DNA from: Rhodothermales bacterium
GTDB taxonomy: Bacteria > Bacteroidota > Rhodothermia > Rhodothermales > VXPQ01
Length of the DNA: 64,000 bases
NCBI GenBank assembly: GCA_965116435.1
Contig: OZ220686.1
Coordinates: 325,005 to 389,004, forward strand
Reading direction: 5' to 3'
Positions within the stretch are counted from its first letter, which is position 1. The number at the start of each line of letters is the position of its first letter. A model generated the notes under the pieces. The model saw only the letters and a list, made by a program, of their open reading frames with translations, searched no databases and was not told where the DNA came from. Below, piece after piece: positions 10,233 through 51,940 of the stretch. A program made the position numbers and the translations under genes.

Positions 10233-10270
10233 GCCTGCGGGAGCGAGGGCGCGCGTCTTCGCCGTTTTTC

Positions 10271-10388
10271 GGGGGGATGTGGGGATTGATGTCGGTTTTT
10301 ATCCTGTTTTTAGGGGAAATGTGGGGACTACTGGCGTTATTTGTCCTGTTTTTCAGGGAGATGCGGGTTGTTGGCGGTGTTCGGGCGG
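10271..10388. repeat. Tandem repeat with a 42-43 bp unit, about 2.8 copies
   Basis: GGGGGGATGTGGGGATTGATGTCGGTTTTTATCCTGTTTTTA, then GGGGAAATGTGGGGACTACTGGCGTTATTTGTCCTGTTTTTCA, then a partial third copy. It lies in the spacer between Calx-beta genes 1 and 2. Confidence 0.8.
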
Positions 10389-10476
10389 CGCATTGCCTGG
10401 TACTTTTTGCAAAAAACGGCGGATTTTCGTATTATTAAAAACTGTGTTTTTCTTCGATTTTTTCAAGGGTGCGCTG

Positions 10477-36125: not shown

Positions 36126-37118
36126 TCAAGGCGTTGTCTCGTCTATATGGATGTAGTCCGCCGCGCTGTCGCGCAGGCGGTCCCGTTGATGCACGTACAC
36201 CATGGTCGTTTCGATTTTCTTGTGTCGGGCGTGCGACTGCACCTGCTGAATGGAGGCCCCGGATTCGATGGCGAGAGTGCAGCCTGTGTGGCGGAGCGAA
36301 TGCGCCCCGATTTCCTTTGGAAGTCCGGCTCGCCGCGCCGTGCGATCCACAACGCCGTAGATGGAACGCTCCGAAAGGCGTTTCCCGAAACTGTTGTTGC
36401 TTAAAGAGCGCCAAAGGGGGCCGTCCGTAATGCCGTAATACGTTTTCATTCGGTCGATTTCTTCCACGACATGCGGGGGAATTTTCACGTACTGATCGGC
36501 GCCGCCCTTTGTGTCGGGCAAATCGAGCACCTGATAGTCGCCGAGCATGCGAATATCCTCGACGTTCATGGCGGCGGCCTCGGAACGGCGCAATACGCAG
36601 TGGAGCAGGGTGAGCAACAGGGCCCGGTCCCTTGGCGCCGAATGGGCTTGCTTGCCGTCCGGGCCAGGATTCGTCGCCGCCTGCACAAGCCGTCCGGCTT
36701 GCTCGGCGGTCAACACGATGCGGGCGCCGTCGCGGCCGCCCGATTTGCGGACCCGCCGCAAAACATGCCGGCTGGCCGGGTTGCGGGTCAATACGCCGAG
36801 AGCCACCAGCCATTCGAAAAATCCCCGAATGGCTGCGAGGCGGCGTTTGATGGTGGCGGGCTTGTAGCCGTTTTTTTCCATCTCCGCAATGTGCCGGTTA
36901 ATGTCGGTAAACGACAGTTCACGCACCGTCACCGTGTCCGCAAAATCGGATCCGAAGAAAGCCGCCAGATCGTCTCCGTAGGCTTTACGGGTTTGGGGGC
37001 GGTCGTACCGATCCAGAAACGCTTCGACAAGGTTGGCGTCCGGGCGGATAATGCCCGTAGCGACATCCATCAAGGCGATCAAGTCGGCGGAAGAGACGTT
37101 CTGGGACATGGGAGGCAT
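36126..37118 (-). CDS. Tyrosine recombinase, XerC/XerD-like (phage integrase family)
   Basis: 330 aa. It has an N-terminal SAM-like domain (TRKAYGDDLAAFF), and the catalytic region has RRSEAAAMNVEDI ... HSLRHTGCTLAIESGASIQQVQSHARHKKIETTMVYVH (R..H-R-H..Y). Confidence 0.85.
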   Translation of the reverse strand: MPPMSQNVSSADLIALMDVATGIIRPDANLVEAFLDRYDRPQTRKAYGDDLAAFFGSDFADTVTVRELSFTDINRHIAEMEKNGYKPATIKRRLAAIRGFFEWLVALGVLTRNPASRHVLRRVRKSGGRDGARIVLTAEQAGRLVQAATNPGPDGKQAHSAPRDRALLLTLLHCVLRRSEAAAMNVEDIRMLGDYQVLDLPDTKGGADQYVKIPPHVVEEIDRMKTYYGITDGPLWRSLSNNSFGKRLSERSIYGVVDRTARRAGLPKEIGAHSLRHTGCTLAIESGASIQQVQSHARHKKIETTMVYVHQRDRLRDSAADYIHIDETTP

Positions 37119-37177: not shown

Positions 37178-37371
37178 ACGGCGTATAAAACGGGTTGTCA
37201 AGGGGTTTGGTGGTTTTTTTCGAGGGATTTCGTAGCGGGTTGACTTTGCCCGGGCGTTTTCTATATTATATCCGCATTCTCATTTTCGTAACATTTGGCG
37301 CCTTGCGCGGGCGTCCCATAGCGCGGGCGCGGGCCAAGCCTGCAACGCCCCTACTCAGACTCGATAACGAT

Positions 37372-37788
37372 ATGAAAGAACGGTTTATGCTCAAGGCGCT
37401 GGGCTTGCTCCTGGTCGTATTCAGCGCGGAGGCTGTTGTGCAATGGCTCGTCGGATTGTTCGAAGGACGCCTTGTTTTCGAGGCGGACCTGCTCGTGTTG
37501 CTGATCGGCGTTGGGTTGTTTTATGCGCATCCCTTATGGGGCTTGGCGGCAAGAGCGTATGTGGTTTTGTGCGGTCTTGCGCTCATTGCTGTCACCGCGT
37601 TAGCGTTTGCAGGATTCCCGAATGTTGGCAACTGGCTGGAGTTCATGGAACGCGATACCCTCGACTCCATCCCCCCTCCGTTTATCGCGCTGTACGCCGC
37701 TACGTTGCTGGCGCTCCTCGCATGGAGTTACATATTCCTGCATAAAGCGGCCCGCGCGGACAAGGATGTGCGGGAAGTTTCGGAGTGA
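37372..37788 (+). CDS. Hypothetical membrane protein (138 aa, about 4 TM)
   Basis: The ORF was trimmed to ATG 37372 (MKERFMLKALGLLLVVF). It has four hydrophobic helices and no recognised motif. Confidence 0.45.
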   Translation: MKERFMLKALGLLLVVFSAEAVVQWLVGLFEGRLVFEADLLVLLIGVGLFYAHPLWGLAARAYVVLCGLALIAVTALAFAGFPNVGNWLEFMERDTLDSIPPPFIALYAATLLALLAWSYIFLHKAARADKDVREVSE

Positions 37789-37832
37789 GGCGGATCTCTT
37801 TGGATAACATATAATTCCCACATAATAAATAT

Positions 37833-40649
37833 ATGGCGCAGGCGACCATAGACAGACTGATAATCAATTCCCCCTACAAGGAACCGGCAAGGCATTGGAA
37901 CTATGACCGCGCCTCGCGCCTGTTCGATCTCGCAGAGGGTCGGCGTCCGGCCGGATATGTTGTAGCTTCGCAGGACTCCAAGACCTTTGATGACCCTGGA
38001 ACCTTTGTAGAAATCCCTCTGGTTAATCAGATTCGCACCCGCGTCAAGAAGTGGCGCGACGCAGGGTATCCGGGCGTAACCGGCGTTACTCGCCGCCTGC
38101 TTCAGCACTGGACAGATCCAGAGGAATTCGCCGAACGACGATTCTTCTTTTGCCAGATTGAGGCTGCCGAAACACTGATCTGGCTTGCGGAAGCATCTTC
38201 CTCCGAGAAAGTAGGCATCGATATTCCAGCCGACGGGGGAAATTTCCAGCGGCTATGCGCCAAAATGGCGACGGGTTCAGGGAAAACCGTGGTTATGGCC
38301 ATGATCATCGCATGGCACATCCTGAACAAGGTCGCATTTCCACAGGACCGCCGATTCGCCAAAAATATTCTTGTGATTGCGCCGGGACTGACCGTCAAGA
38401 GCCGCCTGTCGGTTCTGAACCCCTCTCACCCGGAAAATTACTACCAGGCATTTCGCGTCCTCCCCTCCCCTATGCTGGACAAGCTCCGCCAGGGGAAGGT
38501 GCTTGTGCATAACTGGCATGCGCTCAACTGGGAGACGGACGAGAAAATCGCCAATAAACGCAGCGTGGACAAACGCGGAGCGAAGAGCAACGAAGCGTAT
38601 GTACGGGAAGTGCTTGGAGATATGGCGAATGCCCGAAACATACTGGTTATCAATGACGAAGCACATCATGCGTGGCGTGTTCCTGCCGGATCCGGTGCGC
38701 GAGGGATTAAAAAAGAGGATATCAAACCAGGGGACATCGAACAAGCCACGAAATGGATTGGCGGACTGGATCGAATAGACCAGGCTCGCGGGATCCTTGG
38801 GTGCTACGATTTTTCGGCGACGCCTTTTGTCCCGTCCGGCAAAAAAAGTTCGGAGGAAGCGCTGTTCGACTGGATCGTGAGCGATTTCGGGCTGAATGAC
38901 GCTATTGAAGCCGGTCTCGTCAAAACACCCCGCGTAGTGATCCGCGACGACGCCGTTCGAGACGCAAAAACCTACAAATCGCGGCTTTATCATATCTATA
39001 ACGATTCTGAAGTAAAGGACGACCTGAATCGAAAGGCCGAGCCAACGGCTCCTCTTCCCGACCTTGTTCTGAATGGCTATTACCTTCTCGGGTACGACTG
39101 GCGCGAAACAGCAAGGCAATGGCAGTCTCAAGGCTATAAGACCCGGCCAGCAATGATTACCGTGACAAATCGCACGGAGACGGCGGCGAGGATCAAGCAC
39201 TCTTTCGACAACGGCAAAATCCGCATTGACGAGCTTTGCGATGCGAAGCGAACGCTTCACATCGACTCGAAAGTCCTTGAAAAGGCCGAAGCCGCCGACG
39301 GGCCGATCGCCGAAAGCAACAAGAAATCTAAGCCAAAACAGCGCGCCGAATTTTTGCGCTTGCAGGTAGACACCGTGGGGCAGGAAGGAAAGCCCGGAGC
39401 GGATATCCAGAATGTGATCGCCGTGGGGATGCTATCCGAAGGCTGGGACGCCAGAACCGTAACGCACATCATGGGCCTGCGGGCCTTCACCAGCCAGTTG
39501 TTATGCGAACAGGTGGTAGGGCGTGGCCTGCGCCGCACCGCCTATGAAACGAATCCGGAAACCGGTCGCTTCGATCCGGAATACGTCAATATCTTTGGTG
39601 TGCCCTTTACGTTTTTGCCGCACGAATCGAAGCCAGGCGTAGTGCCGCCTCCGCCTAAGCCGAAAACCGAAATCAAACCTGATCCCGAAAAGGCGGCGTT
39701 CGAGATTCGGTGGCCCAATCTCGTTCGTATTGATCGCGTATTCCGTCCGCATTTAACCCTTGATCCAGATCAGGTAGCGCAGATCGAGTTGAGTGCAGGG
39801 CAAACCATTCGCATCGCCGAACTGGCGCCCGTGGTCGAGGGCAAGCCAGACTTGAGGAAGATATCCCTTATCGAACTCGACAAACTGGCTCGCGAGTTCC
39901 GTACCCAACGTATCGTGTTCGAAACGGCGGCGGAGGTATACGACCGGATGCAGACGGATTGGCAAGGCAGCCGGGAATTTCTGCTGGCCCAGTTGGTGAG
40001 GCTCATAGACAAATTCATCCGCTCCGACAGGATTGTCGTTACATCCTCCCTGTTCGACCAGGATCGTCTAAAACGCCGCCTGATCATTACGCTTAACATG
40101 ACCAGGATTGTCGAACATATCTGGCAGGCGATTCACTTCGAAAACGTCGAAAAACTGGAGCCGGTATTCGATTCGGACCGCCCTGTTTGCTCAACCGGAG
40201 ACATGATCACCTGGCATTCCAGCAAGCCTTGCGAACCGACCGAACACAGCCACATCAATTTCTGCGTGTACGACAGCGCCTGGGAGGCAACGGAAGCCTT
40301 CGCTCTGGATCGCAGCCCCCTCGTGGAGGCATGGGTGAAGAACGATCATCTCGGTTTCGAGGTGTTTTACGTGTATCGCGGGGTGGTCAGAAAATATCGC
40401 CCCGACTTTCTCGTCAGGCTGACCTCTGGCGCTATGCTGGTTCTGGAAGTCAAAGGCAAAGAGAGCGAGCAGGATCGTATCAAGCACGGGTTTCTCGACA
40501 GATGGGTTGCCGCCGTCAATGCGCATGGAGGGTTTGGGCGATGGACCTGGGCTGTTTCGAGGAATCCTGGCGATATTCACGATATCCTCACGAAAAATGT
40601 GTTGCCGGATGTGTCTAAAGGGATGTCGGATACTCTTGCGGGAACATAA
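37833..40649 (+). CDS. res: Type III restriction enzyme Res subunit (SF2 helicase plus C-terminal PD-(D/E)xK nuclease)
   Basis: Motif I MATGSGKTVVMA, motif II VINDEAHHAW, motif VI EQVVGRGLRR, and a C-terminal nuclease-like PDFLVRL....LVLEVKGKE. 938 aa and intact. Confidence 0.85.
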   Translation: MAQATIDRLIINSPYKEPARHWNYDRASRLFDLAEGRRPAGYVVASQDSKTFDDPGTFVEIPLVNQIRTRVKKWRDAGYPGVTGVTRRLLQHWTDPEEFAERRFFFCQIEAAETLIWLAEASSSEKVGIDIPADGGNFQRLCAKMATGSGKTVVMAMIIAWHILNKVAFPQDRRFAKNILVIAPGLTVKSRLSVLNPSHPENYYQAFRVLPSPMLDKLRQGKVLVHNWHALNWETDEKIANKRSVDKRGAKSNEAYVREVLGDMANARNILVINDEAHHAWRVPAGSGARGIKKEDIKPGDIEQATKWIGGLDRIDQARGILGCYDFSATPFVPSGKKSSEEALFDWIVSDFGLNDAIEAGLVKTPRVVIRDDAVRDAKTYKSRLYHIYNDSEVKDDLNRKAEPTAPLPDLVLNGYYLLGYDWRETARQWQSQGYKTRPAMITVTNRTETAARIKHSFDNGKIRIDELCDAKRTLHIDSKVLEKAEAADGPIAESNKKSKPKQRAEFLRLQVDTVGQEGKPGADIQNVIAVGMLSEGWDARTVTHIMGLRAFTSQLLCEQVVGRGLRRTAYETNPETGRFDPEYVNIFGVPFTFLPHESKPGVVPPPPKPKTEIKPDPEKAAFEIRWPNLVRIDRVFRPHLTLDPDQVAQIELSAGQTIRIAELAPVVEGKPDLRKISLIELDKLAREFRTQRIVFETAAEVYDRMQTDWQGSREFLLAQLVRLIDKFIRSDRIVVTSSLFDQDRLKRRLIITLNMTRIVEHIWQAIHFENVEKLEPVFDSDRPVCSTGDMITWHSSKPCEPTEHSHINFCVYDSAWEATEAFALDRSPLVEAWVKNDHLGFEVFYVYRGVVRKYRPDFLVRLTSGAMLVLEVKGKESEQDRIKHGFLDRWVAAVNAHGGFGRWTWAVSRNPGDIHDILTKNVLPDVSKGMSDTLAGT

Positions 40650-40666
40650 ACGTCTGGTTACACACC

Positions 40667-43197
40667 ATGCCGAAAAAGAAAGACATTGAAAGCTACGCGC
40701 ACACCGATAAGGAGCGGACGAACAACCCTCCCGTCGGGCTGGTAACCCCTGAAACCGATCGGGATCAAGGCAGGAAGGGCTATGCTCACGATCCTCATAT
40801 CGACCCACAACTCGTCTGGGCCGGAAAGGCGGAGCATACGTCGTTCGAGGTCCCGACCGTCTCGCTGCATGTGCACGAACGCATAGATGCGCGTACGATC
40901 ATCGAGGCGACGCGGAAACGCAATGGCGCGCTGCCCCAGCCTTCGTTATTTGAAGGTCTGGGGGAAAATCCGCCGCTTCGCCAAGCCATCGAGTTCTACC
41001 GGCACAAGCATAACTGGACCAACCGCCTCGTTGCGGGCGACAGCCTGCTCGTCATGAACAGCCTGCTGGAAAAGGAAGGGCTTGGCGGGCAGGTGCAGAT
41101 GATTTACATAGATCCGCCGTATGGAATCAGTTACGGATCGAATTTCCAGCCTTTTGTGAATACGCGAAATGTGAAGGACGGAGAGGATGGGGATTTGACT
41201 GCAGAACCGGAACAGATCCGCGCTTTTCGAGACACCTGGGAAATGGGCATCCATTCCTATCTGGCGTATCTGCGAGATCGCCTTCTGATTTCGCGGGAAC
41301 TACTCACCGAGAGCGGTTCCTGTTTCGTGCAGATCGGCGATGAAAACATCCACCGCGTGGGTATGGTGATGGACGAAATTTTCGGCGCAGAGAATCGCAT
41401 AGCTACCATATCCTTCGCCACAACGAGCGGAAGTTCCACGTCCACCCTGCCACAAGTAGCCGATTACCTTCTCTGGTACGCAAGGGATCACAAAAAGGTG
41501 AAATACCGGCAAATATATGAATCCCTGACGCGGAGTGAGATAGTAGACCTTTTCAATTGGGATGTCATGGTAGAATTGCCGGATGGCGCATGCCGGAAGC
41601 TTACCCCCCAGGAACGCTTTGATCCCGATGCATATTTGCCCGAAGGCGCTCGCATTTATCAACGCACCGGACTGGATTCGCAAGGTGTTTCTACAACAGG
41701 TCGCTCCGAGCCTTATGAATGGAACGGCAGGGTATTTCCTTGCGGGAAAAATCGCCATTGGTCCATTTCCAAAGAAGGCATGGACCGTTTGGCCGAGCTG
41801 GGCAGACTGGAAGCGCTTGCTGGCCAAGAGTCGCTCAGGTGGAGAAAATACGAAAATGAAGTGCCAGGGCGACGCATCAACAATGTCTGGCCAGTCAAAA
41901 TGTACCCCAGCACAAAATCCTATGTGGTGGAGACCTCTACGAAAGCCATCCAGCGTTGCCTGCTGATGACCACGGATCCCGGCGATCTTGTGCTTGATCC
42001 CACTTGCGGTAGCGGAACCACGGCCTTCGTCGCCGAGCAGTGGGGACGAAGATGGCTTACTTGCGATACCTCGCGCGTTGCTATCACACTGGCCAAACAG
42101 CGGCTGATGACGGCGCATTTCGACTATTACGAATTGGCGCATCCTGACGAGGGAGTAGGTAGCGGTTTTCGCTACAAAACAGTCCCGAAGGTTTCTCCCA
42201 AGGTTCTCACAGGCGACGAATCGCAATCTGATATAGTCCTCTACGACCAGCCCCTGAAAGACAATAAAAAGTTTCGCGTCACGGGTCCATTCACACTGGA
42301 AGCCGTGCCTGCGCCTACGGTAAAACCGCTGGACGATATACAAGATACCCCCCCCCCCCCCACACGCCACCAGATGACTCGGTTGCTCGCTCGGGAGAAA
42401 CGCTCCGCCAGAGCGACTGGCGCGACGAATTGTACAAAACCGGCATCCGAGGCAAGGCCGGGCAGCGTATCTCATTTGTCCGCCTGGAACCACTTCCTGG
42501 CTGTCACTGGCTACACGCCGACGGGGAGACGCGCTCTGATAATGCCGAAACGGACTCCGAACGGGTTGTTATTTCCTTCGGTCCCGATCATGCTCCATTG
42601 GAACAACGCCAGGTGGCCTTAGCCATTGAAGAGGCGCAAAACCTCGTTCCCAAGCCGAAAATCATCGTTTTTGCCGCTTTTCAGTTTGACCCCGAGGCTG
42701 CCAAAGATATCGACGAAACAAATTGGCCCGGCGTAACTTTACTCAAGGCGCAAATGAACGCGGACCTGCTGACGGGAGACCTGAAGAAAAAACGCTCCAG
42801 CAACGAAAGCTTCTGGCTTATCGGCCAACCGGACGTAGAATTGGAAACAATGCAAGACGGCAAACTGCGGGTATCCGTACTCGGATTCGACTACTACAAT
42901 ACAAAAACCGGCAAGCCGGAATCCGGCGGATCGGACCGAATCGCCGTGTGGATGCTGGACCCGGATTACGATGGCCGTAGCCTGTTTCCGCATCAGGTTT
43001 TCTTTCCTTTGGCCGGTCCCAAAGACGGCTGGACCCGCCTTGCGCGCAACCTGAAGGCCGAGCTCGACGAACGTCTCATAGAAGCCTATCGCGGCACAAC
43101 CTCCCTTCCCTTCGAGCCGGGCGAGCACCGGCGCGTGGCGGTCAAGATCGTGGACGACCGGGGCATTGAAAGTTTGAAAATTGTGGAGGTGGGTTGA
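40667..43197 (+). pseudogene. mod: Type III-like DNA methyltransferase (Mod, N6/N4 beta-class), split by a frameshift inside a C14 tract
   Basis: Motif IV IYIDPPYG precedes motif I LVLDPTCGSGTTAFVA. Frame 2 (40667-42622) leaves the expected sequence at the C tract. The conserved C-terminal domain (..DWRDELYKTGIRGKAGQRISF...AFQFDPEAAKDIDE...DYDGRSLFPHQVFFP) continues in frame 1 directly from the tract to 43197. A tract of C15 or C12 would give one ORF of about 840 aa. Confidence 0.8.
42348..42361 (+). repeat. Homopolymeric C14 tract at the mod frameshift
   Basis: Counted directly (3+10+1 C across the line breaks). Confidence 0.95.
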
Positions 43198-44021
43198 TGG
43201 AAAGGCCGAGTAAGAAGAAAGCGATGGAGCGTTTGCAGAAAGCCCGAGAGGCAATTAATGAATTGCGGAGTCCGGATATCCTACGTGATCAGAGTAGCTC
43301 TCCAAAATTCAAAAAGTGGCACCGAAATACCGAAATTGCTATCACTAACATATTTGGCAATTCTCGTCATATTGAAGATTTTAGAAATGTTCGGTATCGC
43401 CTGCTAGCGTATTCTGATATGACCCCCGACGGAGAGTTCATTGAAGCCTATATACACGGCTTGGATTCAGCAGATGCAATACTTGAGTCAATGCTTGAGG
43501 AGATTAAAGAATATTGGGACAATGACATTAATACATCAACACCACCTTCATCCAAAGAAATATTTCAGTTAGATACAAACAAAATATTTGTCATCCACGG
43601 TAGAGACGAAGGCACCCGAGATATGCTATCTGGATTTATCAAAAAATTAGAACTTCAGCCTGTGATACTATCGGAAAAATCAAATCAGGGACTCACGATC
43701 ATTGAAAAATTCGAGAAGTATTCAGAAGTCGGATTCGCGATAGCTTTGCTGACGCCCGACGACACCGGATCGCTTAAAGAAGCCGAAAACAAACCGAATC
43801 CACGCGCTCGGCAAAACGTGATCTTCGAATTGGGCTTCTTCATTGGAAAAATTGGGCGAGAACGCGTATGCGCCCTTACCAAAGGAAAGCTGGAAATACC
43901 TTCGGACTACTCCGGCGTTGTGTACATATCATTGGATGACTCTGGTGGATGGAAGCTCCAACTTTGCAAAGAACTCAAGGACGCTGGATACGCAGTAGAC
44001 GTAAATCGAATTATGGAGTGA
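43197..44021 (+). CDS. TIR-like domain protein (CAP12/Pycsar-effector-type, COG4271-like) with an N-terminal helical domain
   Basis: The C-terminal 140 aa, KIFVIHGRDEGTRDMLSGFIKKLELQPVIL....IIEKFE....FAIALLTPDD......RARQNVIFELGFFIGKIGRERVCAL.KG.LEIPSDYSGVVY, match the TIR-like nucleotide-binding family as I remember it. The ATG overlaps the mod stop (TGATG). The gene is very low in GC. Confidence 0.7.
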   Translation: MERPSKKKAMERLQKAREAINELRSPDILRDQSSSPKFKKWHRNTEIAITNIFGNSRHIEDFRNVRYRLLAYSDMTPDGEFIEAYIHGLDSADAILESMLEEIKEYWDNDINTSTPPSSKEIFQLDTNKIFVIHGRDEGTRDMLSGFIKKLELQPVILSEKSNQGLTIIEKFEKYSEVGFAIALLTPDDTGSLKEAENKPNPRARQNVIFELGFFIGKIGRERVCALTKGKLEIPSDYSGVVYISLDDSGGWKLQLCKELKDAGYAVDVNRIME

Positions 44022-44062
44022 ATAAAAAAATAAGGTTTATATTTTTTCATAATGGTGTATAA

Positions 44063-44323
44063 ATGCTGTTCATCCGAAAAGCCGAAGCGGAACAATTGCT
44101 TCTTTCAGGCTTTGCCCGGGGTATGGTTAGCACCCATCGCCAGGGAAACCTGAGCCTGCCCAAGTTTGTATGGGCCGTGGACGACCAGGGCGAGGTTTAC
44201 GAAGCAAAACTGGACGGCGACGGACCCGGCTATCACGGGTACCGAATCAACGAATATCGAGACGCAGGCTCGCGCGTAATGCGCAAACAGGTGCTAAGGG
44301 CATGGAAACGACGGAGCAATTGA
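44063..44323 (+). CDS. Hypothetical small basic protein (86 aa)
   Basis: ATG ORF containing KFVWAVDDQGEVYEAKLDGDGPGYHGYRINE. It overlaps the next ORF by 22 nt. No family was recognised. Confidence 0.45.
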   Translation: MLFIRKAEAEQLLLSGFARGMVSTHRQGNLSLPKFVWAVDDQGEVYEAKLDGDGPGYHGYRINEYRDAGSRVMRKQVLRAWKRRSN

Positions 44324-45054
44324 AATTTACGTTCGTCCCGGAGCCGCTGGAGGAAGGCTCCCCGGAAGAGAAGGCTTCTTTCGGCAAGGTTTCCATTGCC
44401 GCAAACGGGCGCGTACTGACCGAAGGCATTGCGTTGCTGGAGGACAACGAGCTCGTCAGCGGGTCCCATGTTTCTGCCTATCATATGGCCGAATGGCTGC
44501 TGTGGAACTGGTGGCGGTTGCTTTGGGAGCCCCGTCCGGAAGGCGTGGAAAACGGCAAGGACGAGGATAAAGACGATACATGGTTCGAATGGGTTTTTGC
44601 GCACAATTTGTCCTCCATCGGCGAGGGTTATCTGTGGCCGGATATCGAAATGGCGTCGGACGGCGGGCTGATGCATCTGGCCTCTTCGCCGACCGGAGAT
44701 CCGAATGAAAAGGTGTTTCGCTTCGTGGGAGCATCGCGGCTGGAGACCATCCCGGTCGGGGCATTCATGAAGGCCGTGGACGAATTCGCCTGTGCCGTGC
44801 TGGAGCGCCTGGACGAGGCAAATATTCGGGATACCAACCTGCATGTTCTCTGGCGTCAGTTGGCGCGGGAACGGGAGGACAAGGCCGCGGCGGCGTTTCG
44901 CCGCATGGAGGCGATACTGGGATATGATCCCGGCGAAGGAGAGGACGACGAGATACGGGAATACCTTGCGGACGCCGCAACATTAGGAATGGATATTCGC
45001 CTTGCTCGCATTGCAGGACACTTGCTCGGAAGTTCCGCCGTTTCCGACGAGTAA
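44302..45054 (+). CDS. Hypothetical acidic protein (250 aa)
   Basis: The ORF was trimmed to ATG 44302 (METTEQLKF). It has the Trp-rich motif HMAEWLLWNWWRLLWEP. It ends 13 bp from the convergent Calx-beta gene and may be 3'-truncated. Confidence 0.5.
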   Translation: METTEQLKFTFVPEPLEEGSPEEKASFGKVSIAANGRVLTEGIALLEDNELVSGSHVSAYHMAEWLLWNWWRLLWEPRPEGVENGKDEDKDDTWFEWVFAHNLSSIGEGYLWPDIEMASDGGLMHLASSPTGDPNEKVFRFVGASRLETIPVGAFMKAVDEFACAVLERLDEANIRDTNLHVLWRQLAREREDKAAAAFRRMEAILGYDPGEGEDDEIREYLADAATLGMDIRLARIAGHLLGSSAVSDE

Positions 45055-45067
45055 GGCCTCCCCTACC

Positions 45068-47773
45068 CTACCGTAGCAGCGTCATTTTCCTCGTGAGCGT
45101 TTCTCCGTTCGCCTGGAGTCGATAGACGTACAGGCCCGACGGCAGGCTGTCCGCGTCGAAGCGTACGGTATGCGTTCCTGCCGGGCACACCCCGTCTACG
45201 AGGACGCCTACGCTGCGCCCGGTGGCGTCGAATACTTCCAGGCGGACGTGTTGGGGGGCGGGAAGCTCGTATTCTATCGCCGTCGAGGGGTTGAACGGGT
45301 TCGGGTAGTTCTGGCCCAGCGCAAACGCATCCGGGAGTTCCCCTTCGGGAGATTCTATCGACGTTACGTTTTCATCTTCCGAGATGATCACGTCCACAGA
45401 TGCGGGCGTCCCTCTCGAAAAACCGGCGGGCAAGGCTCCGAACGTTACCGTGAACGTTTCGTCCTCCATGTCGTCGTCCTTTGTGGTGAGGATCCAGTCC
45501 GTTCCGAAGGGTTCGTTTGCGTCTATGACGATGGTTGCGAGGGCCACGTAGTCGCCTGTTTCGCCGTCGTTTGTGGTGAAGACGAGGGGCAAGGTCACCA
45601 CGCTGGGTACGGTATGCGCCAGTTCGGCGTGGATGGTGGCTCTTCTGCCTTCGTAGATGGGGTTCGGGTACACAGCCAGCGTAATCTGGGTCGGGTCGTT
45701 GCCGCCACCGGGGTCGCCGCCACCGGGGTTTCCTCCGCCCGGGTTTCCACCACCGCCGCCCGAATCATCGTCGTTCACCGTCACTGTCGCGGAGTTGGCG
45801 CTGCCCACCGTGTAGCCATTGCCGTTTTTCAGCGTTACCGTCACCGAGCCGTTCGCCTCATCCGCGTTGTCGTCCTCGGTGGAGATGGCGACGGTTGTGC
45901 TGGCTGCGGAGATGCTCCGCGTCTTGTCGCCAAGTTGGCCGGACGCCAAGAACGTTCCGCTTTGCGAGACCGTGTAGGCGACCGTGATGCTGCTACCCGG
46001 CGCAGGGTTCGACGAAATGGTGAACGAAGCATCGCCGCCCTCGGTCACCGCCGACCCACCGGTGATGGTTAGCTCCGGCGTCGCTGTAGCCCGATCGTTG
46101 TCCGTAATCGTCAGCGTGTGCATAGCTCTCGTCGTGCCGACATTGTAGCCCGTGCCGCTACCCAGCGTCAAAATAACCGTCTCGCTGCCTTCCACCACGC
46201 TGTCGTCCGTGATGGCGACCGGAATGCTCGCCGTGCCCGAAGTCCCAACGGTGATTGAGCCGCTATTACTACTCACCCCGTTGATAGAATAATCCGTCCC
46301 GCGCGTGGCGCCGCCGGAGAGCATGTAGTTCACCGTAACGTTCCCACTTGGCGCAGGGCTGAGATTCACCGCGACGTTTTGTGTCCCGCCGCCCTCCGCC
46401 GCGCTCGAAGCGGACGCCCCGAAGTTCGCTTCGGGCGTACTTGGCGCATCGTCGTCCGTCACCGTCACCGTCACGCTGGGGATAGAGAACGTCGTCAACG
46501 CCGCCGGACGGTACTTCTGGCCGTCCCCGTCGCCCGCCTCGATCGTGTGCGTGATCGTACGGGTGCGCTCGCCGCCCGTATTCACGATGTGGTCGTTCTG
46601 GCCCGTGATCGTCACCGTCTGCGCCGTGCTCCAGTTGCTTGTCGTGAACGTCAGCGTATCTTTTGCCTTCGGCTTCGCATTCCCGCCGGGACCGTCCACG
46701 AACGCTGCGCCTCCGGCGGTCACGGTGATGATCACTTGCCCCGCAGGCCGCGTGTCCAGGCCCACGGTGTAGGTCGCCGTGCCTCCGTTCTCCGCGACCG
46801 TGCGGGCGCTCTGCGATACGGTCACTCCCGCCGTGTCGTTGTCGTTCACGGTCACCGTCGCGGAGTTCGCGGTGCCCACCGTATAGCCCGTGCCCGCGTT
46901 TACGGTCACCGTCACGCTGCCGTTGTTCTCGTCCGTATCGTCGTCCACGGTGGAGACGGAGTGGGTAGCGGAGCCGGACGTGGGTACGGAAACCGTCTTG
47001 CTGCTGCCGATCAATCCAGAGGTTGCGAAGTTGCCGCTCTCGCTCACGGTCAGTTTGACGGTGAGGGCCGAGGCCGGCGCAGGGCTTGCCGTCACCGTGA
47101 AGCTGGCATCCGCGCCCTCGGTCACGGAAGACGATCCCCCCGCAATAGTGACCTCCGGGAGGGTTACGGTGTCGTCGTCAAGGATCGTGTGGGTATGGGT
47201 CGATGTGCCGAGGGTGACATCCGAACGGGCGTTGCCGAGAAAGGATAGCGTTGCGATCACCGTCTCGTCGGACTCAACGTCGGTGTCGCCCCGCACCTGG
47301 ATGGCTATGTGAGGATAATCAAGGCTGGAAAAAGCATCCGCTCCCAATGATGCCTTTTCGCAGGTGCTTGCACGGGGGCTGTTGGACAATATCGTTCGGT
47401 AGTCTGCGCCTGGGGTGCCCCAACCACCTTGACCATCATCTTGCGTATTGATGGTCGCCGTGCCACTGAAACAGATCTCAAAAGGCACAGTACCTGGTAC
47501 CTGCTTTGACAGGGTCACCGTGTAGGCAAGGCTCCTTATACCCGAATCCCCTTCGTTCGCGTCCGCAGGTCCACTGATAGACAGGGTGGCGGCCTGCGCG
47601 GCGGCCTCGTAGACCGGTCCCCATACCATACACAGCGCGGCCAGCCACGCTATCCATAGAATGCGGCGACAGGAAAGGGCGCGCCGCGCCGCCGAAGCAG
47701 CGCCTGATTTACAAGATAGCCCCCCCCCCCTCACGTTCGAGGAATCATTCTCCCGAAGAAACGAAGAAATCAT
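45068..47773 (-). CDS. Secreted Calx-beta repeat protein with T9SS C-terminal sorting domain (paralogue A, in frame)
   Basis: 901 aa. The leader is MISSFLRENDSSNVRGGGLSCKSGAASAARRALSCRRILWIAWLAALCMVWGPVYEAAAQA. It has Calx-beta modules, a linker GGGGGNPGGGNPGGGDPGGGN, and the C-terminus FALGQNYPNPFNPSTAIEYEL...LYVYRLQANGETLTRKMTLLR. Confidence 0.85.
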   Translation of the reverse strand: MISSFLRENDSSNVRGGGLSCKSGAASAARRALSCRRILWIAWLAALCMVWGPVYEAAAQAATLSISGPADANEGDSGIRSLAYTVTLSKQVPGTVPFEICFSGTATINTQDDGQGGWGTPGADYRTILSNSPRASTCEKASLGADAFSSLDYPHIAIQVRGDTDVESDETVIATLSFLGNARSDVTLGTSTHTHTILDDDTVTLPEVTIAGGSSSVTEGADASFTVTASPAPASALTVKLTVSESGNFATSGLIGSSKTVSVPTSGSATHSVSTVDDDTDENNGSVTVTVNAGTGYTVGTANSATVTVNDNDTAGVTVSQSARTVAENGGTATYTVGLDTRPAGQVIITVTAGGAAFVDGPGGNAKPKAKDTLTFTTSNWSTAQTVTITGQNDHIVNTGGERTRTITHTIEAGDGDGQKYRPAALTTFSIPSVTVTVTDDDAPSTPEANFGASASSAAEGGGTQNVAVNLSPAPSGNVTVNYMLSGGATRGTDYSINGVSSNSGSITVGTSGTASIPVAITDDSVVEGSETVILTLGSGTGYNVGTTRAMHTLTITDNDRATATPELTITGGSAVTEGGDASFTISSNPAPGSSITVAYTVSQSGTFLASGQLGDKTRSISAASTTVAISTEDDNADEANGSVTVTLKNGNGYTVGSANSATVTVNDDDSGGGGGNPGGGNPGGGDPGGGNDPTQITLAVYPNPIYEGRRATIHAELAHTVPSVVTLPLVFTTNDGETGDYVALATIVIDANEPFGTDWILTTKDDDMEDETFTVTFGALPAGFSRGTPASVDVIISEDENVTSIESPEGELPDAFALGQNYPNPFNPSTAIEYELPAPQHVRLEVFDATGRSVGVLVDGVCPAGTHTVRFDADSLPSGLYVYRLQANGETLTRKMTLLR
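47720..47730 (-). repeat. Homopolymeric G11 tract (C11 on the + strand) in the leader of paralogue A
   Basis: Counted directly. It encodes RGGG between ATG 47773 and the signal peptide. Confidence 0.95.
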
Positions 47774-48827: not shown

Positions 48828-51800
48828 CTACCGCAACAGCGTCATTTTCCTGGTGCGCGTTTCGCCGTTCGCCTGGAGGCGATAGACGTACAGGCCCGAG
48901 GGCAGGTTGTCCGCGTCGAAGCGTACGGAATGCGTTCCTGCCGGGCGGATCCCGTCTACGAGGACGCCTACGCTGCGCCCGGTGGCGTCGAACACTTCCA
49001 GGCGGACGTGTTGCGGAGTGGGCAACTCGTATTCTATCGCCGTCGAGGGGTTGAACGGGTTCGGATAGTTCTGGCTCAGGGCAAACGCTTTCGGGAGTTC
49101 TCCTTCGGGAGATTCTATCGACGTTACGTTTTCATCCTCGCTGATGATTACGTCCACAGATGCGGGCGTCCCTCTCGAAAAACCGGCGGGCAAGGCTCCG
49201 AACGTTACCGTGAATGTTTCGTCCTCCATGTCGTCGTCTTTCGTCGTGAGAATCCAGTCCGTTCCGAAGGGTTCGTTTGCGTCAATGACGATGGTTGCGA
49301 GGGCCACGTAGTCGCCTGCTTCGGCGTCGTCTGTGGTGAAGACAAGCGGCAAGGTCACCACGCTGGGTACGGTATGCGCCAGTTCGGCGTGGATGGTGGC
49401 TCTTCGGCCTTCGTAGATGGGGTTCGGATATACGGCCAGCGTAATCTGGGTCGGGTCGTTGCCGCCACCGGGGTTTCCTCCGCCCGGGTTTCCACCACCG
49501 CCGACACCTGGGGCCGTCGAATCGTCGTTGTCGGTGATGGTGAGCGTGTGGGTCGTCGCACTGCCCAGCGTGTAGCCCGCGCCGCGGGTAAGGGTCAGGA
49601 TGACCGTCTCGGCGTTCTCGACGGCGCTGTCGTCGTTGATGGCAACAGGGATGTCTGCGGCGCTCGCCCCGGGGGCGATCGTCAGCGAACCTGAGTTCTG
49701 GATGGTGAAGTCGTTGCCGCTGCCCGCCGTCGCGGTGCCGGAAACGCTGTAGCCGAGCGAGAAGCCGCGCGAAGGCGCCGGGGAGATGTTGACCGTCACA
49801 TTGTGCGTGCCGGCGCTCTCGGCCGCGCTCGAAGAGACCGCCGCGAAGGACGCCGTGGCGATGGCCTCGACATCGTTGTCCTCGATGGTGAGCGTCGCCT
49901 CGGTGATTGACCCCGCCGTGACGCCAGCCGGCAGGTTCGCCGTGTCGATGGCCACCCTGAAGGTCTCATCCCCTTCAAAGGCCGTGTCCTCAAGGATGGG
50001 AATGTCAATGGAGTAGCGGGTATTGCCGTCCGCCTTGAAGACCAGTTGGCTAACCAGTGTGTAGTCCGCGCCGCCCGTCGCAGTGATGTCCGTAAAGATC
50101 AGCGGAACCGTAATATCGCGTCCACTCGCCGGCGTCACAGTAAAGGTCGGTTGGGCAACACCTGCACCTTCATTGGCGGCGAAGGCGTCCCGAATGAAGG
50201 ACAGCGTTACCGAAGACGGTGCATCGGTGATCGTCATCGTTTGGGTCGCGCCGCCGAGTGACAGCGTCACCGTCTCGTTCGACTCAGACAGGTTGTCCCC
50301 AAGGGTCTCCAGATGCAGCGGCCCCGCGGTACGGCGGCGACCCTGCAAGATCGCACCGTCGAAGGTTATCGAAGGATTGTTGCCGTTGAGGCCGCTACAG
50401 GTGGCGACCGCTGCTGATTCCACAGACCTGCAGGCCAGCCGGTAGTCCGTCCCGAGCGTGGCGGCGCCACCGATGGTCAGCGGCAGCGTTACTGTCTCGC
50501 TGTTGCCCAACGCCTCGCTTAAATATATATTGAAATAGACGACTGCGCCTTCAGGCAAGGTGGTAACACCGCTGCCGGAACTAAGTTGTGCGGTGACCGG
50601 CGCATCGTCGTCCGTCACCGTCACCGTCACGCTGGGGATAGATAATGACGAGAATGACACCGGACGGTACTTCTGGCCGTCCCCGTCGCCCGCCTCAATC
50701 GTGTGCGTGATCGTACGGGTGCGCTCGCCGCCCGTATTCACGATGTTGTCGTTCTGGCCCGTGATCGTTACCGTCTGCGCCGTGCTCCAGTTGCTTGTCG
50801 TGAACGTCAGCGTATCTTTTGCCTTCGGCTTCGTATTTCCGCCGGGACCGTCCACGAACGCCGCGCCTCCGGCGGTCACGGTGATGGTCACTTGCCCCGC
50901 AGGCCGCGTGTCCAGGCCCACGGTGTACGTAGCCGTGCCTCCGTTCTCCGCGACCGTGCGGGCGCTCTGCGATACGGTCACGCCCGCCGTGTCGTTGTCG
51001 TTCACGGTCACCGTCGCGGAGGAGTTGGAACTGCCCACCGTATAGCCCGTGCCCGCGTTTACGGTCACCGTCACGCTGCCGTTGTTCTCGTCCCTATTGT
51101 CGTCCACGGTGGAGACGGTGTAGGTAGCGGAGCCGGACGTGGGTACGGAAACCGTCTTGCTGCTGCCGGTCGATCCAGAGGTTGCGAAGTTGCCGCTCTC
51201 GCTCACGGTCAGTTTGACGGTGAGGGCCGAGGCCGGCGCAGGGCTTGCCGTCACCGTGAAGCTCGCATCCGCGCCCTCGGTCACGGAAGACGATCCTGCC
51301 GCAATAGTGACCTCAGGGAGGGCTACGGTGTCGTCATTGAGAATCGTGTGGGTATGGGTCGATGTGCCGAGGGTGACGCCGGCAGGGGGGGTGTTTCTTA
51401 ACCTCAACGTTGCGATCACCGTCTCGTCGGGCTCAACGTCGGTGTCGCCCCGTACCTGGATGTCTATGCGAGTATTTGCGAGAGAGCCGCCTGCCTGATG
51501 TGCTGAATGGAAGCAGGTGGTTCCAGTGGCGCCGCCGTCGGTTCTCGTCCGGTAGTCCGCGCTTGAGCTCCAACCATTAAATGTGGTATTCGCAGTTGCC
51601 GTGCCACTGAAACAAAGCTCCCACTCCACAATGCTTGATACCGCCTGTGACAGGGTCACCGTGTAGGTACGGGTCCTCGCGCCCGAATTCCTCTCGTTTG
51701 CGTCCGCGGGTCCACTGAGCGACAAGGTGGTGTTGTTCTGCGCGGCGGCCTCGGAGATCGGGCCCCATACGGTACACACCATACACAGCGCGGCCAGCCA

Positions 51801-51940
51801 CGCTATCCATAGAACGCGGCGAGCGAAAAGGACGCGCCGCGGCGCCGAAGCAGCACCTGATTTACAAGATAGCCCCCCCCCCCCCTCACGTTCGAGGAAT
51901 CATTCCCAGAATCGTTCCCCCGAAGAAACGAAGAAATCAT
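48828..51940 (-). pseudogene. Calx-beta/T9SS-CTD paralogue B, with its start codon out of frame because of a G13 tract (candidate phase-OFF allele)
   Basis: The body ORF 48828-51782 (984 aa) starts only at a Met inside the hydrophobic core (MVCTVWGPISEAAAQ). The homologous leader MISSFLRGNDSGNDSSNVRGGGG starts at ATG 51940 in another frame and stops at 51803. G11 or G14 would fuse the two. Confidence 0.8.
51873..51885 (-). repeat. Homopolymeric G13 tract (C13 on the + strand) in the leader of paralogue B
   Basis: Counted directly (8+5 C across the line break). Confidence 0.95.

Follow-up and report, generated by a model that had tools for sequence, protein, structure and literature searches.

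A TIR-like gene embedded behind mod in a Type III-like restriction-modification operon of Rhodothermales: a candidate two-layer antiviral cassette

Why should a gene for a TIR-like protein lie directly behind the methyltransferase gene of a restriction-modification (R-M) operon, and what is its relation to that operon? The question is raised by a locus in a 64,000-nucleotide stretch of a Rhodothermales genome (contig OZ220686.1), referred to here as the window, in which res, mod and a TIR-like gene follow one another on the plus strand, as do all the features described below. The first-pass annotation listed these three genes together with two open reading frames (ORFs) of 86 and 250 residues further downstream, and all five, in this order, were confirmed in the sequence. 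The window carries a Type III-like R-M system of the BPTD_3080 family with an accessory effector gene embedded right after mod. From sequence comparison, it is proposed with moderate confidence that res, mod and the TIR gene form a cassette, in which a probably autonomous TIR effector rides in the R-M operon and would supply an abortive, NAD+-hydrolysing second layer of defence.

The res gene (37833–40649, 938 residues) is apparently intact, and its product matches the NCBIfam model NF046055 (BPTD_3080 family restriction endonuclease) with 1104 bits (cutoff 800) over positions 2–969 of the 970 in the profile. The SF2 helicase domain ResIII of Pfam was also detected, along with a weak match to REase_III of PADLOC. 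The mod gene (40667–43197) encodes a Type III-like N6/N4 DNA methyltransferase and is frameshifted, i.e., OFF, in the window: its frame is broken at a run of 14 cytosines (42348–42361), and the gene appears as two ORFs, the first ending at 42622 (40667–42622) and the second encoding the C-terminal domain (42430–43197). Both halves match the PADLOC model MTase_III (PDLC03632), the N-terminal one over positions 78–545 (E-value 7.6e-131) and the C-terminal one over 733–982 (1.6e-21) of 983, and the N6_N4_Mtase domain of Pfam (PF01555) was detected at 8e-29. An intact Mod of 842 residues is encoded in the near-identical assembly L001. The two genes are thus a family Res and an adjacent N6_N4-type Mod, as in a Type III R-M family, with the intact Mod found outside the window; a mod-res pair of the BPTD_3080 family was also found on RefSeq plasmids.

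The junction between mod and the TIR gene (43185–43199) consists of a Shine-Dalgarno sequence, GGAGG (43185–43189), and of TGATG, in which the TGA of mod (43195–43197) overlaps the ATG of the TIR gene (43197–43199), with 7 nt between GGAGG and the ATG. The overlap was thus read directly, as had been reported, and the TIR gene is provided with a Shine-Dalgarno sequence of its own. It extends over 43197–44021 and encodes 274 residues, and the first-pass annotation regarded the N-terminal domain of its product as uncharacterized. This view does not hold, since the whole protein belongs to the PADLOC candidate family PDC-S35: residues 8–272 match the model PDLC05005 over positions 5–262 of 264 (E-value 1.9e-84), and four further PDC-S35 models are matched at 1e-45 to 1e-75.

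Two domains were distinguished in this protein. Residues 1–110 (43197–43526) form a four-helix bundle, modelled by AF2 with a pLDDT of 93 and a pTM of 0.84, and residues 111–125 are a disordered linker; the N-terminal domain had been described as helical and of about 135 residues, of which the helical character stands and the size does not. Searches of the PDB gave no match to this fold (best E-value 0.28), and no STING or SAVED domain was matched. The bundle is hypervariable, with a mean pairwise identity of 0.40 versus 0.64 for the TIR domain, and elsewhere it is fused to TIR_2, to PNP_UDP_1 (a CBASS-type PNP effector) and to AbiJ_NTD4 (AbiJ/PDC-S32) domains; it is presumed to be a sensor or regulatory module. 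The second domain (residues 128–262, 43578–43982) is a TIR domain of the Cap12/PycTIR type. The HMM search that had been suggested confirmed that the protein scores as TIR-like, with a match to CAP12-PCTIR_TIR of Pfam (PF10137) at residues 130–248, over positions 1–118 of 119 (E-value 5.4e-37, 126.9 bits, cutoff 24.7). In a profile search this domain matched Cap12 (9lmq and 7un8) and PycTIR (8jsj) with the motif NV(I/V)FE(L/F)G aligned, and TIR-STING proteins were the top Foldseek matches of a TIR-domain model that is itself moderately confident (pLDDT about 50–85). In TIR NADases the catalytic residue is the NVxFE(F/L)G glutamate. In this protein it corresponds to E211 of NVIFELG (codon 43827–43829), which is invariant across 27 homologues and aligns with NVVFEFG of Cap12 in both 9lmq and 7un8.

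Like Cap12 (TIR-STING) and PycTIR, which gave its best structural and sequence matches, the protein belongs to the PF10137 subfamily with an aligned NVxFExG motif; unlike them, it has no STING, SAVED or cNMP-binding domain and no cyclase nearby, the unrelated four-helix bundle standing in the place of the sensor. Membership of CBASS or Pycsar was rejected, since no cyclase was called within 10 kb on either side of the identical locus in L001, no cyclic-nucleotide sensor domain was detected, and the NCBIfam Cap12 equivalogs gave 35–38 bits (best 37.9) against a cutoff of 450. Thoeris was likewise rejected, as neither the TIR protein nor the genes around it gave a Thoeris match in PADLOC, and no ThsA-type effector gene (SIR2/SLOG or other) lies beside the TIR gene of L001. 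The earlier observation that a cyclase, ThsA and a TM partner are missing thus agrees with the genes called within ±10 kb in L001.

The survey of related loci was entered through the TIR protein and covered 80 species-representative loci, so that its counts apply to TIR genes rather than to BPTD_3080 systems as a whole. The C-terminal domain of mod (68–93% identity) adjoins the TIR gene in 22 of the 80 loci and is immediately upstream in 21 of these; res (65–85% identity) is also present in nearly all 22. Two metagenome relatives and two near-identical copies of the window locus bring the set to 26 loci, 21 of which show a stop/start overlap of the form T(G/A)ATG or ATGA. Synteny of res, mod and a TIR-like gene, which it had been proposed to look for in other genomes, is therefore well kept: the TIR gene follows a BPTD_3080-family mod in 24 species-representative genomes of at least eight phyla, with linkage in Binatia, Nitrospirota, Gamma- and Alphaproteobacteria, Spirochaetia, Latescibacterota, Caldilineaceae, Longimicrobiales and Rhodothermales. 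This recurrence indicates a conserved cassette and not a chance neighbourhood. The order res-mod-TIR is peculiar to the Rhodothermales lineage of the window, and elsewhere the order is mod-TIR-res, found in 20 or more loci. The TIR proteins embedded in Type III systems are essentially one clade, the nearest neighbour being also embedded in 21 of 24.

The comparison suggests that the TIR gene is accessory, and not core, to this R-M family. In Sphingobium and Agrobacterium mod and res are directly adjacent and the TIR gene is absent; in Thermus the slot next to mod is filled by a DUF3800 gene with a 4-nt overlap, and in Planktothrix by genes for 451 and 232 residues. The interval between the TIR gene and res in turn hosts PD-T4-4, HepT and M78+DUF4411 modules in other loci. 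In favour of an autonomous effector, homologues of PDC-S35 were found inside Type I operons (hsdM-hsdS-TIR-hsdR in L060 and L084), on small plasmids beside a recombinase, and in contexts unrelated to R-M.

The limits of the cassette were defined by comparison with a sister strain (L085), in which the corresponding miaA-integrase site is without it. Positions 9300–9766 of L085 correspond by blastn to 37349–37814 of the window and positions 10194–12261 to 44070–46117; between them L085 has 428 nt where the window has the 6.25-kb res-mod-TIR block (37815–44070), and the junction sequences were read. The incoming unit was therefore the three-gene cassette and not the TIR gene alone. The two small ORFs, which had been counted as members of a composite defence island, fall outside this unit and are decayed bystanders. 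The 86-residue ORF (44063–44323) is a 5'-truncated remnant of a 148-residue gene, whose present ATG comes from the cassette end; its homologues have 140–148 residues (P0146 is 98% identical), and the full gene is present in L085. The 250-residue ORF (44302–45054) is the N-terminal part of a 3'-truncated gene, the partner of the 148-residue one, from a family of about 435 residues (homologues of about 430–438, one of them named ImmA/IrrE, and an intact ORF of about 450 in L034). Neither ORF had a match in Pfam, PADLOC or NCBIfam, and the C-terminus of the longer family is weakly like ImmA/IrrE (P0131 against Peptidase_M78, E-value 0.0064, below the cutoff). In L085 this independent pair occupies the same chromosomal site without an R-M system, and in Rhodocista (L086) it occurs by itself.

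On this basis a working model can be outlined. The genes res, mod and TIR would be co-transcribed, and the TGATG overlap would couple translation of the TIR gene to that of mod; no RNA structure enforcing this mod-to-TIR coupling was found. The N-terminal domain would sense a phage-derived cue or relieve autoinhibition, after which the TIR domain would oligomerize and hydrolyse NAD+, arresting the infected cell once restriction has failed. The effector would probably be an autonomous single-gene module with no obligate Mod or Res partner, to which the R-M operon gives co-transfer and co-expression. In the Rhodothermales lineage, mod would also have gained a poly-C tract switching the R-M system ON (C12) or OFF (C14, C10).

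A different arrangement, judged unlikely, is that the TIR protein is held latent on a Mod/Res complex and freed by a phage anti-restriction protein, the coupling ensuring that the silencer is always present. It has a precedent in the PrrC anticodon nuclease, nested in the EcoprrI Type Ic R-M locus as a second defence line behind restriction (PMC1484252; Payne et al., bioRxiv 10.1101/2024.01.29.577857). The TIR gene is placed much like prrC, mostly between mod and res and, in L060 and L084, between hsdS and hsdR; the conserved stop/start overlap and the single clade of Type III-embedded TIR proteins also speak for this arrangement. Such a tight, phylum-spanning overlap with one mod clade also weighs against the model of an autonomous effector, as it exceeds what a loosely hitch-hiking gene would need and leaves room for a functional Mod-TIR dependency. 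Nevertheless, the N-terminal domain, through which such an interaction would presumably take place, is the least conserved part, and the C-terminal domain of Mod is the most conserved, with a mean identity of 0.78 (0.71 for Res); divergence of the TIR protein barely tracks that of Mod (rho 0.2), in contrast with Res (rho 0.62). Close homologues also exist without any R-M system, and in the window mod is OFF with an intact TIR gene that has its own Shine-Dalgarno sequence, which would carry a risk of unsilenced toxicity. The locus resembles EcoprrI in that an R-M operon harbours a gene for an abortive-type effector, and differs in that PrrC, an ABC-ATPase joined to an RNase in a Type I host, has no homology to a helical bundle joined to a TIR domain in a Type III-like host; the evolutionary pattern, as read from the sequences, disfavours PrrC-type silencing and activation by anti-restriction here.

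The poly-C tract of mod (42339–42366 with its flanks, TACAAGATA...ACACG) is a candidate phase-variation switch. In keeping with the switch proposed earlier, its length differs among three near-identical assemblies (97–98% nucleotide identity): the window has C14, L001 has C12 with an intact mod, and L002 has C10 with a split mod; the C12 allele alone gives the 842-residue Mod. Another poly-C tract is constant at C11 in the window, L001 and L085, which argues against the C14/C12/C10 differences being pure assembly noise; homopolymer error of long reads may still contribute to them. Phase variation of mod, ON at C12 and OFF at C14 and C10, is therefore plausible. Phase-variable Type III mod genes are familiar as the phasevarions of Haemophilus, Neisseria and Helicobacter. 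As in these, the reading frame of mod depends on the length of a simple-sequence tract within the ORF; unlike these, the present tract belongs to an environmental Rhodothermales host, is lineage-specific and has a TIR effector gene downstream. Relatives have an interrupted gtgtccccctcccccgcc in place of the pure tract, and its 5' flank is common to poly-C tracts at surface-protein genes. A more far-reaching proposal, which appears rather improbable, is that only ribosomes completing Mod go on to translate the TIR gene, so that a single slippage event would toggle the restriction and NAD-depleting layers jointly; the locus would then be a phase-variable two-tier immune module with the overlap as a functional fail-safe, and the switch itself, TACAAGATA-Cn-CACG, would be portable, having been copied by the lineage between surface-protein genes and the defence operon.

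It is quite improbable that the TIR-like protein, instead of being an abortive NADase as favoured here, is an accessory factor of R-M or another nucleotide-processing enzyme, e.g., a regulator that binds nucleotides and acts on restriction during establishment, or a nucleosidase with modified nucleotides as its substrates. The TIR/flavodoxin-like fold is common to enzymes of the nucleoside 2-deoxyribosyltransferase type, RefSeq calls the homologues just "nucleotide-binding protein", and PDC-S35 has candidate status with a predicted activity. Against this, the nearest solved relatives, Cap12 and PycTIR, are NADase effectors whose glutamate motif is kept, the same N-terminal domain is fused elsewhere to bona fide effector domains, and the family also occurs away from R-M systems.

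The TIR gene had been described as AT-rich, and a trough in GC content was indeed found at 43250–44000 (0.39–0.43 versus 0.52–0.57 over res and mod). From this it had been supposed that the gene was acquired separately and inserted at the mod stop; however, the gene is AT-rich in all related loci (GC3 of 0.53 versus about 0.80), which makes this a family trait, like the overlap itself. The favoured model of an autonomous effector does not explain this consistent AT-richness. The alternative that a foreign AT-rich gene was inserted recently and independently at the mod stop, forming a chance composite island with the two downstream genes, would fit the fall in GC of about 12–15 points and the sharp drop in DNA identity to L034 and L041 just past the junction (27–50% over the N-terminal domain, as could result if the TIR gene or its 5' half had been replaced), yet it is contradicted by the conserved synteny, with the same junction and trough in at least eight phyla, by an indel that comprises the entire block and by the truncated remnants of a pre-existing module downstream, and is extremely unlikely.

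The closest precedents for a TIR protein embedded in an R-M operon are thus PrrC inside a Type I system, which already embodies the logic of an abortive effector behind restriction that had been taken as undescribed, and the candidates found by "guilt-by-embedding". The latter, the PDC families of PADLOC, were derived from R-M Type I, BREX and DISARM systems (Payne et al., bioRxiv 10.1101/2024.01.29.577857), and PDC-S35 is listed by PADLOC as a single-gene candidate from this set; neither PDC-S35 nor PF10137 is named in the text or supplements of that work, where Type III appears only as "DRT type III". The full-length PDC-S35 model covers both the N-terminal and the TIR domain of the present protein, and homologues embedded in Type I operons fit the way these candidates were defined. 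Unlike the systems used in that derivation, the host here is a Type III-like R-M system of the BPTD_3080 family, with a mod overlap conserved across many phyla. The embedded TIR gene and its R-M system would therefore represent a conserved two-layer antiviral cassette, in which restriction may be backed by a probably autonomous abortive effector.

The genes res (37833–40649, 938 aa), mod and the TIR-like gene (43197–44021, 274 aa) lie in this order on the plus strand, followed on the same strand by ORFs of 86 aa (44063–44323) and 250 aa (44302–45054). The res product matches over its full length the NCBIfam model NF046055, "BPTD_3080 family restriction endonuclease" (1104 bits, cutoff 800), and contains a ResIII helicase domain detected with Pfam. 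mod appears as two overlapping ORFs (40667–42622 and 42430–43197); both match a single PADLOC Type III methyltransferase model, PDLC03632 (positions 78–545 and 733–982 of the 983 in the profile), therefore they are parts of a single gene, interrupted by a frameshift that is located at a run of 14 cytosines (42348–42361). The ATG of the TIR gene (43197–43199) overlaps the TGA stop codon of mod (43195–43197), a GGAGG is present 7 nt upstream of this overlap, and the GC content drops to 0.39–0.43 in the region of the TIR gene. The gene layout with its small ORFs, the stop/start overlap and the GC drop had been described in a first-pass annotation and are all confirmed; the interpretation that it gave to them was borne out in part only. 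An RNA structure that would sequester the Shine-Dalgarno sequence of the TIR gene and force coupling was not found (consensus energy −1.95 kcal/mol, z-score +0.89). A scan for sigma-70 promoters and terminators gave nothing above shuffled sequences, and neither an internal promoter before the TIR gene nor a terminator after it was detected with this sigma-70 consensus, which may not suit this phylum.

The C-terminal half of the TIR protein (aa 130–248) corresponds to the Pfam family PF10137, CAP12-PCTIR_TIR (E 5.4e-37), and residues 8–272 are covered by the PADLOC candidate family PDC-S35 (E 1.9e-84), in agreement with the TIR-like identity initially assigned to it. This family is represented by 1975 matches, typically of about 270 aa. 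A profile of 27 homologues found the solved structures of Cap12 (9lmq, 7un8) and PycTIR (8jsj), and aligned the motif NV(I/V)FE(L/F)G of the TIR protein with them; the glutamate of this motif, E211, is invariant in the profile. The top Foldseek return for the AF2 model of the protein was TIR-STING. We take E211 to be the presumed catalytic residue, from the motif alignment and from the role of this glutamate in TIR NADases; a full-text search for literature on TIR-STING E84A gave no match. Membership of the TIR gene in CBASS, Pycsar or Thoeris was rejected, given that the protein scores only about 37 bits with the Cap12 equivalog models, far below their cutoff of 450, and that no cyclase or ThsA is encoded within 10 kb among the called genes of L001, a near-identical copy of this locus. 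The lack of a partner of this type had also been noted from the sequence.

The conservation of this arrangement was surveyed with one genome per GTDB species, found via the TIR protein; the resulting 80 loci were searched by tblastn with the proteins of the window. A gene of the same mod clade adjoins the TIR gene in 22 of these 80 loci (68–93% identity in the Mod C-terminal domain) and is immediately upstream of it in 21 of the 22; res (65–85% identical) is present in almost all of them, and the commonest order is mod-TIR-res. The synteny that the first-pass annotation had proposed to look for is thus conserved, in hosts that, by record title, are Binatia, Nitrospira/Nitrospirales, Gamma- and Alphaproteobacteria, Spirochaetia, Latescibacterota, Caldilineaceae, Longimicrobiales and Rhodothermales, and the same mod-TIR junction occurs in two further metagenome relatives (L003 and L004). 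At 17 of 26 junctions the two genes share the single nucleotide of a T(G/A)ATG overlap, three show a 4-nt ATGA overlap and one an overlap of 17 nt; a gap of 28–115 nt separates the genes in four loci, and another gene stands between them in the remaining one. In a distance tree most Type III-embedded TIR copies fall in one clade, the nearest neighbour of an embedded copy being also embedded for 21 of 24, and Type I-embedded copies fall in a different one, so the embedding arose a few times and was then inherited with the R-M system. The hosts of the closest homologues (L005–L053) are mostly uncultured MAG lineages (Dehalococcoidia, Binatia, Latescibacterota, Poribacteria, Caldilineaceae, Rhodothermales); the identity of Mod and Res, 65–80% across those phyla, suggests that the cassette was transferred recently between phyla of a shared habitat.

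In each of the 18 loci measured, the AT content of the TIR gene exceeds that of the adjoining genes; its mean GC3 is 0.53 (0.47 for its N-terminal domain), versus 0.81 for the part of mod that encodes the C-terminal domain and 0.79 for res. Since both the AT-richness and the precise junction recur family-wide, they are properties of the family and not signs of a recent insertion here. The earlier proposal that the TIR gene was acquired separately and inserted at the mod stop is therefore not sustained; moreover, the indel that distinguishes the window from L085, a sister strain devoid of the cassette, comprises the whole res-mod-TIR block. The GC3 trough, seen for example in L014, L022, L037 and L043 (TIR at approx. 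10001–10800), persists even in genomes where res has a GC3 of 0.94. It might be due to the TIR gene being replaced frequently from an AT-rich pool, to poor codons being selected for in a toxic gene, or to silencing.

The R-M family without TIR was looked for by tblastn in a small set of plasmids. In RefSeq plasmids of Sphingobium and Agrobacterium, mod is followed directly by the BPTD_3080 family restriction endonuclease gene; in a Planktothrix plasmid two other genes occupy the position of TIR, and in Thermus (L090, 7720–8565) a DUF3800 gene overlaps the mod stop by 4 nt. The TIR gene is accordingly an accessory, not a core, component of the BPTD_3080 R-M family. In the TIR-bearing loci, the interval between TIR and res often carries further modules: PD-T4-4 (PADLOC PD-T4-4_A, 1.8e-109) in L024, L025, L026, L028 and L032, which at L025 (10847–12812) consists of A and a partner of about 181 aa and in L024 is placed between mod and TIR; HepT RNases detected with Pfam in L011 and L017 (approx. 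11000–11500), with sequence-related ORFs in L022 and L051; and an HTH-M78 plus DUF4411/PIN pair in L010 (11039–12693). The interval from mod/TIR to res acts as a general slot for other modules. PDC-S35 homologues are also found inside Type I operons with the order hsdM-hsdS-TIR-hsdR (L060, L084), beside hsdR or hsdS (L054, L005), beside an MTase-HNH fusion (L021) and in unrelated contexts. On small plasmids, a full-length homologue overlaps the start of a tyrosine recombinase gene by 4 nt (Burkholderia pseudomallei p1, L091, 5938–7778; Pseudomonas avellanae p5, L092, 5944–7784); this recombinase is a second recurrent coupling partner of the family.

The N-terminal 110 residues of the TIR protein are confidently modelled as a four-helix bundle (AF2 pLDDT 93, pTM 0.84) with no significant match in the PDB, and are followed by a disordered linker (aa 111–125). 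A helical N-terminal domain had been anticipated, but its extent is 110 residues plus the linker instead of about 135 aa. When this domain alone was compared with 1.8 billion representative proteins, 529 matches were obtained. A domain scan of ten of the longer ones revealed PF10137 in seven, the unrelated TIR_2 domain in two, a PNP_UDP_1 domain matching the CBASS "PN-superfamily" effector model in one, and an AbiJ_NTD4/PDC-S32 domain in one. Such a combination of a single N-terminal domain with several alternative nucleotide-attacking effector domains would be expected for a sensor or regulatory module of conflict systems; the four-helix bundle seems to serve as a sensor module that is reused with several nucleotide-depleting effectors.

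Among 21 Type III-embedded loci, the mean pairwise identity is 0.40 for the N-terminal domain, 0.64 for the TIR domain, 0.78 for the Mod C-terminal domain and 0.71 for Res. Divergence of Res correlates with that of Mod (Spearman 0.62), versus 0.2 for TIR and Mod, and in some pairs Mod is 95% identical and the TIR domain 96%, with only 48% for the N-terminal domain. When the window is compared with L034 and L041, which are close relatives, the DNA is about 90% identical at the 3′ end of mod; this identity falls to 27–50% across the N-terminal domain and recovers to 75–80% in the TIR domain, thus the N-terminal domain undergoes rapid replacement or diversification. This divergence is consistent with a sensor of fast-evolving phage cues, and agrees poorly with a docking surface for Mod, which is highly conserved. 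Mainly for this reason, a TIR protein acting as an autonomous effector is ranked above one that would guard the R-M system in the manner of PrrC.

The limits of the cassette were defined with L085, obtained from the same sample, which shows the same backbone from miaA and the integrase to the T9SS gene without res-mod-TIR. The alignment places the indel at 37815–approx. 44070. At this position L085 has 428 nt that contain the promoter region and the first ~64 codons of a 148-aa gene, therefore the 86-aa ORF is what remains of that gene at its 3′ end; the end of the cassette supplies the ATG of this ORF, and its homologues have 140–148 aa. The 250-aa ORF corresponds to the N-terminal part of ~435-aa proteins, a family whose members weakly resemble ImmA/IrrE M78 peptidases at the C-terminus. 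The two ORFs, initially counted as parts of the island, were rejected as components of the system: they are truncated here and absent or differently placed in most loci surveyed, and are bystanders or remnants outside the R-M/TIR unit. The intact pair stands alone in Rhodocista next to the suf operon (L086, 7573–9314), and is placed between res and mod in three relatives from the Rhodothermales, L003, L034 (5468–7449, where an intact ~450-aa ORF was confirmed) and L041; in L041 it is duplicated (5859–6764 and 13903–14461). This pair, for which no Pfam or PADLOC family was found, is possibly another embedded module, of defence or TA-like type. A search for a tRNA or att-type island boundary found no tRNA in the window. 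The integrase gene (36126–37118) is also present in L085, so it gives no evidence on how the cassette moved.

The tract in mod is C14 in the window and C10 in L002, both with a split mod, and C12 in L001, where mod is intact (842 aa); these are three assemblies of essentially one locus, with 97–98% nucleotide identity. The homopolymer is specific to this lineage, since the C-rich stretch of relatives is interrupted. Another poly-C tract, which precedes a T9SS cargo gene, has the same length, C11, in the window, L001 and L085; at the level of assemblies, this constancy argues that such tracts can be resolved and that the variation in mod is biological. When mod is OFF, translation ends at 42622, 575 nt before the TIR start, and TIR retains its own GGAGG; joint gating of TIR by the mod switch, via lost coupling or Rho polarity, is possible.

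G/C homopolymer runs of at least 10 nt occur seven times in the 64 kb (4853, 10549, 19079, 30983, 42348, 47720 and 51873), versus ~0.6 expected from base composition. Those at 47720 (C11) and 51873 (C13) are at the 5′ ends of two large paralogous genes for T9SS-sorted (Por_Secre_tail) surface proteins on the minus strand (45068–47773, 901 aa; 48828–51782, 984 aa), which suggests that poly-G/C contingency loci are used more widely by this organism. The exact 9-mer TACAAGATA is present only three times in the window (42339–42347, 47710–47718 and 51863–51871), each immediately 5′ of a poly-C tract that is followed by (A/T)CACG; with one mismatch, there are 10 matches versus 3.1 expected. Such flanks are common to the tract in mod and to those at the surface-protein genes, as if gene conversion had copied the switch. 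The two cargo genes are 85–90% identical in nucleotide sequence over approx. 1.3–2.7 kb, are separated by a DNA_alkylation-repair-like gene and differ between strains; they may form a recombining surface-antigen array.

The PADLOC candidate families come from a "guilt-by-embedding" approach applied to Type I R-M, BREX and DISARM systems (Payne et al., 10.1101/2024.01.29.577857). PrrC/EcoprrI (PMC1484252) is the classical case of an R-M operon that contains an abortive effector, and the organization described here, with a predicted effector, is similar to it. The view of the first-pass annotation that such a system had not been described holds in part: PDC-S35 was already catalogued as a candidate and PrrC/EcoprrI is a precedent for the operon, but the literature searched contained no description of PDC-S35 genes embedded in BPTD_3080 Type III-like systems with a phylum-spanning stop/start overlap, of a hypervariable, modular N-terminal domain, or of a TIR plus R-M combination with a poly-C phase switch. 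The names PDC-S35 and BPTD_3080 had no match in a full-text literature search, and PDC-S35, S35 and PF10137 do not appear in the accessible part of the supplements of Payne et al.

The principle of defence genes within defence operons, known for Type I R-M, BREX, DISARM and Hma, is extended by these results to a Type III-like R-M family, and the slot after mod, occupied by TIR, DUF3800, PD-T4-4, HepT or M78/DUF4411, could be mined for new systems. PDC-S35 is singled out by an unusually tight linkage across many phyla; for validation by experiment, and for distinguishing guard from autonomous logic, it is therefore a strong candidate. If expression of TIR follows the mod phase switch, the population would be bet-hedging over a costly abortive system.
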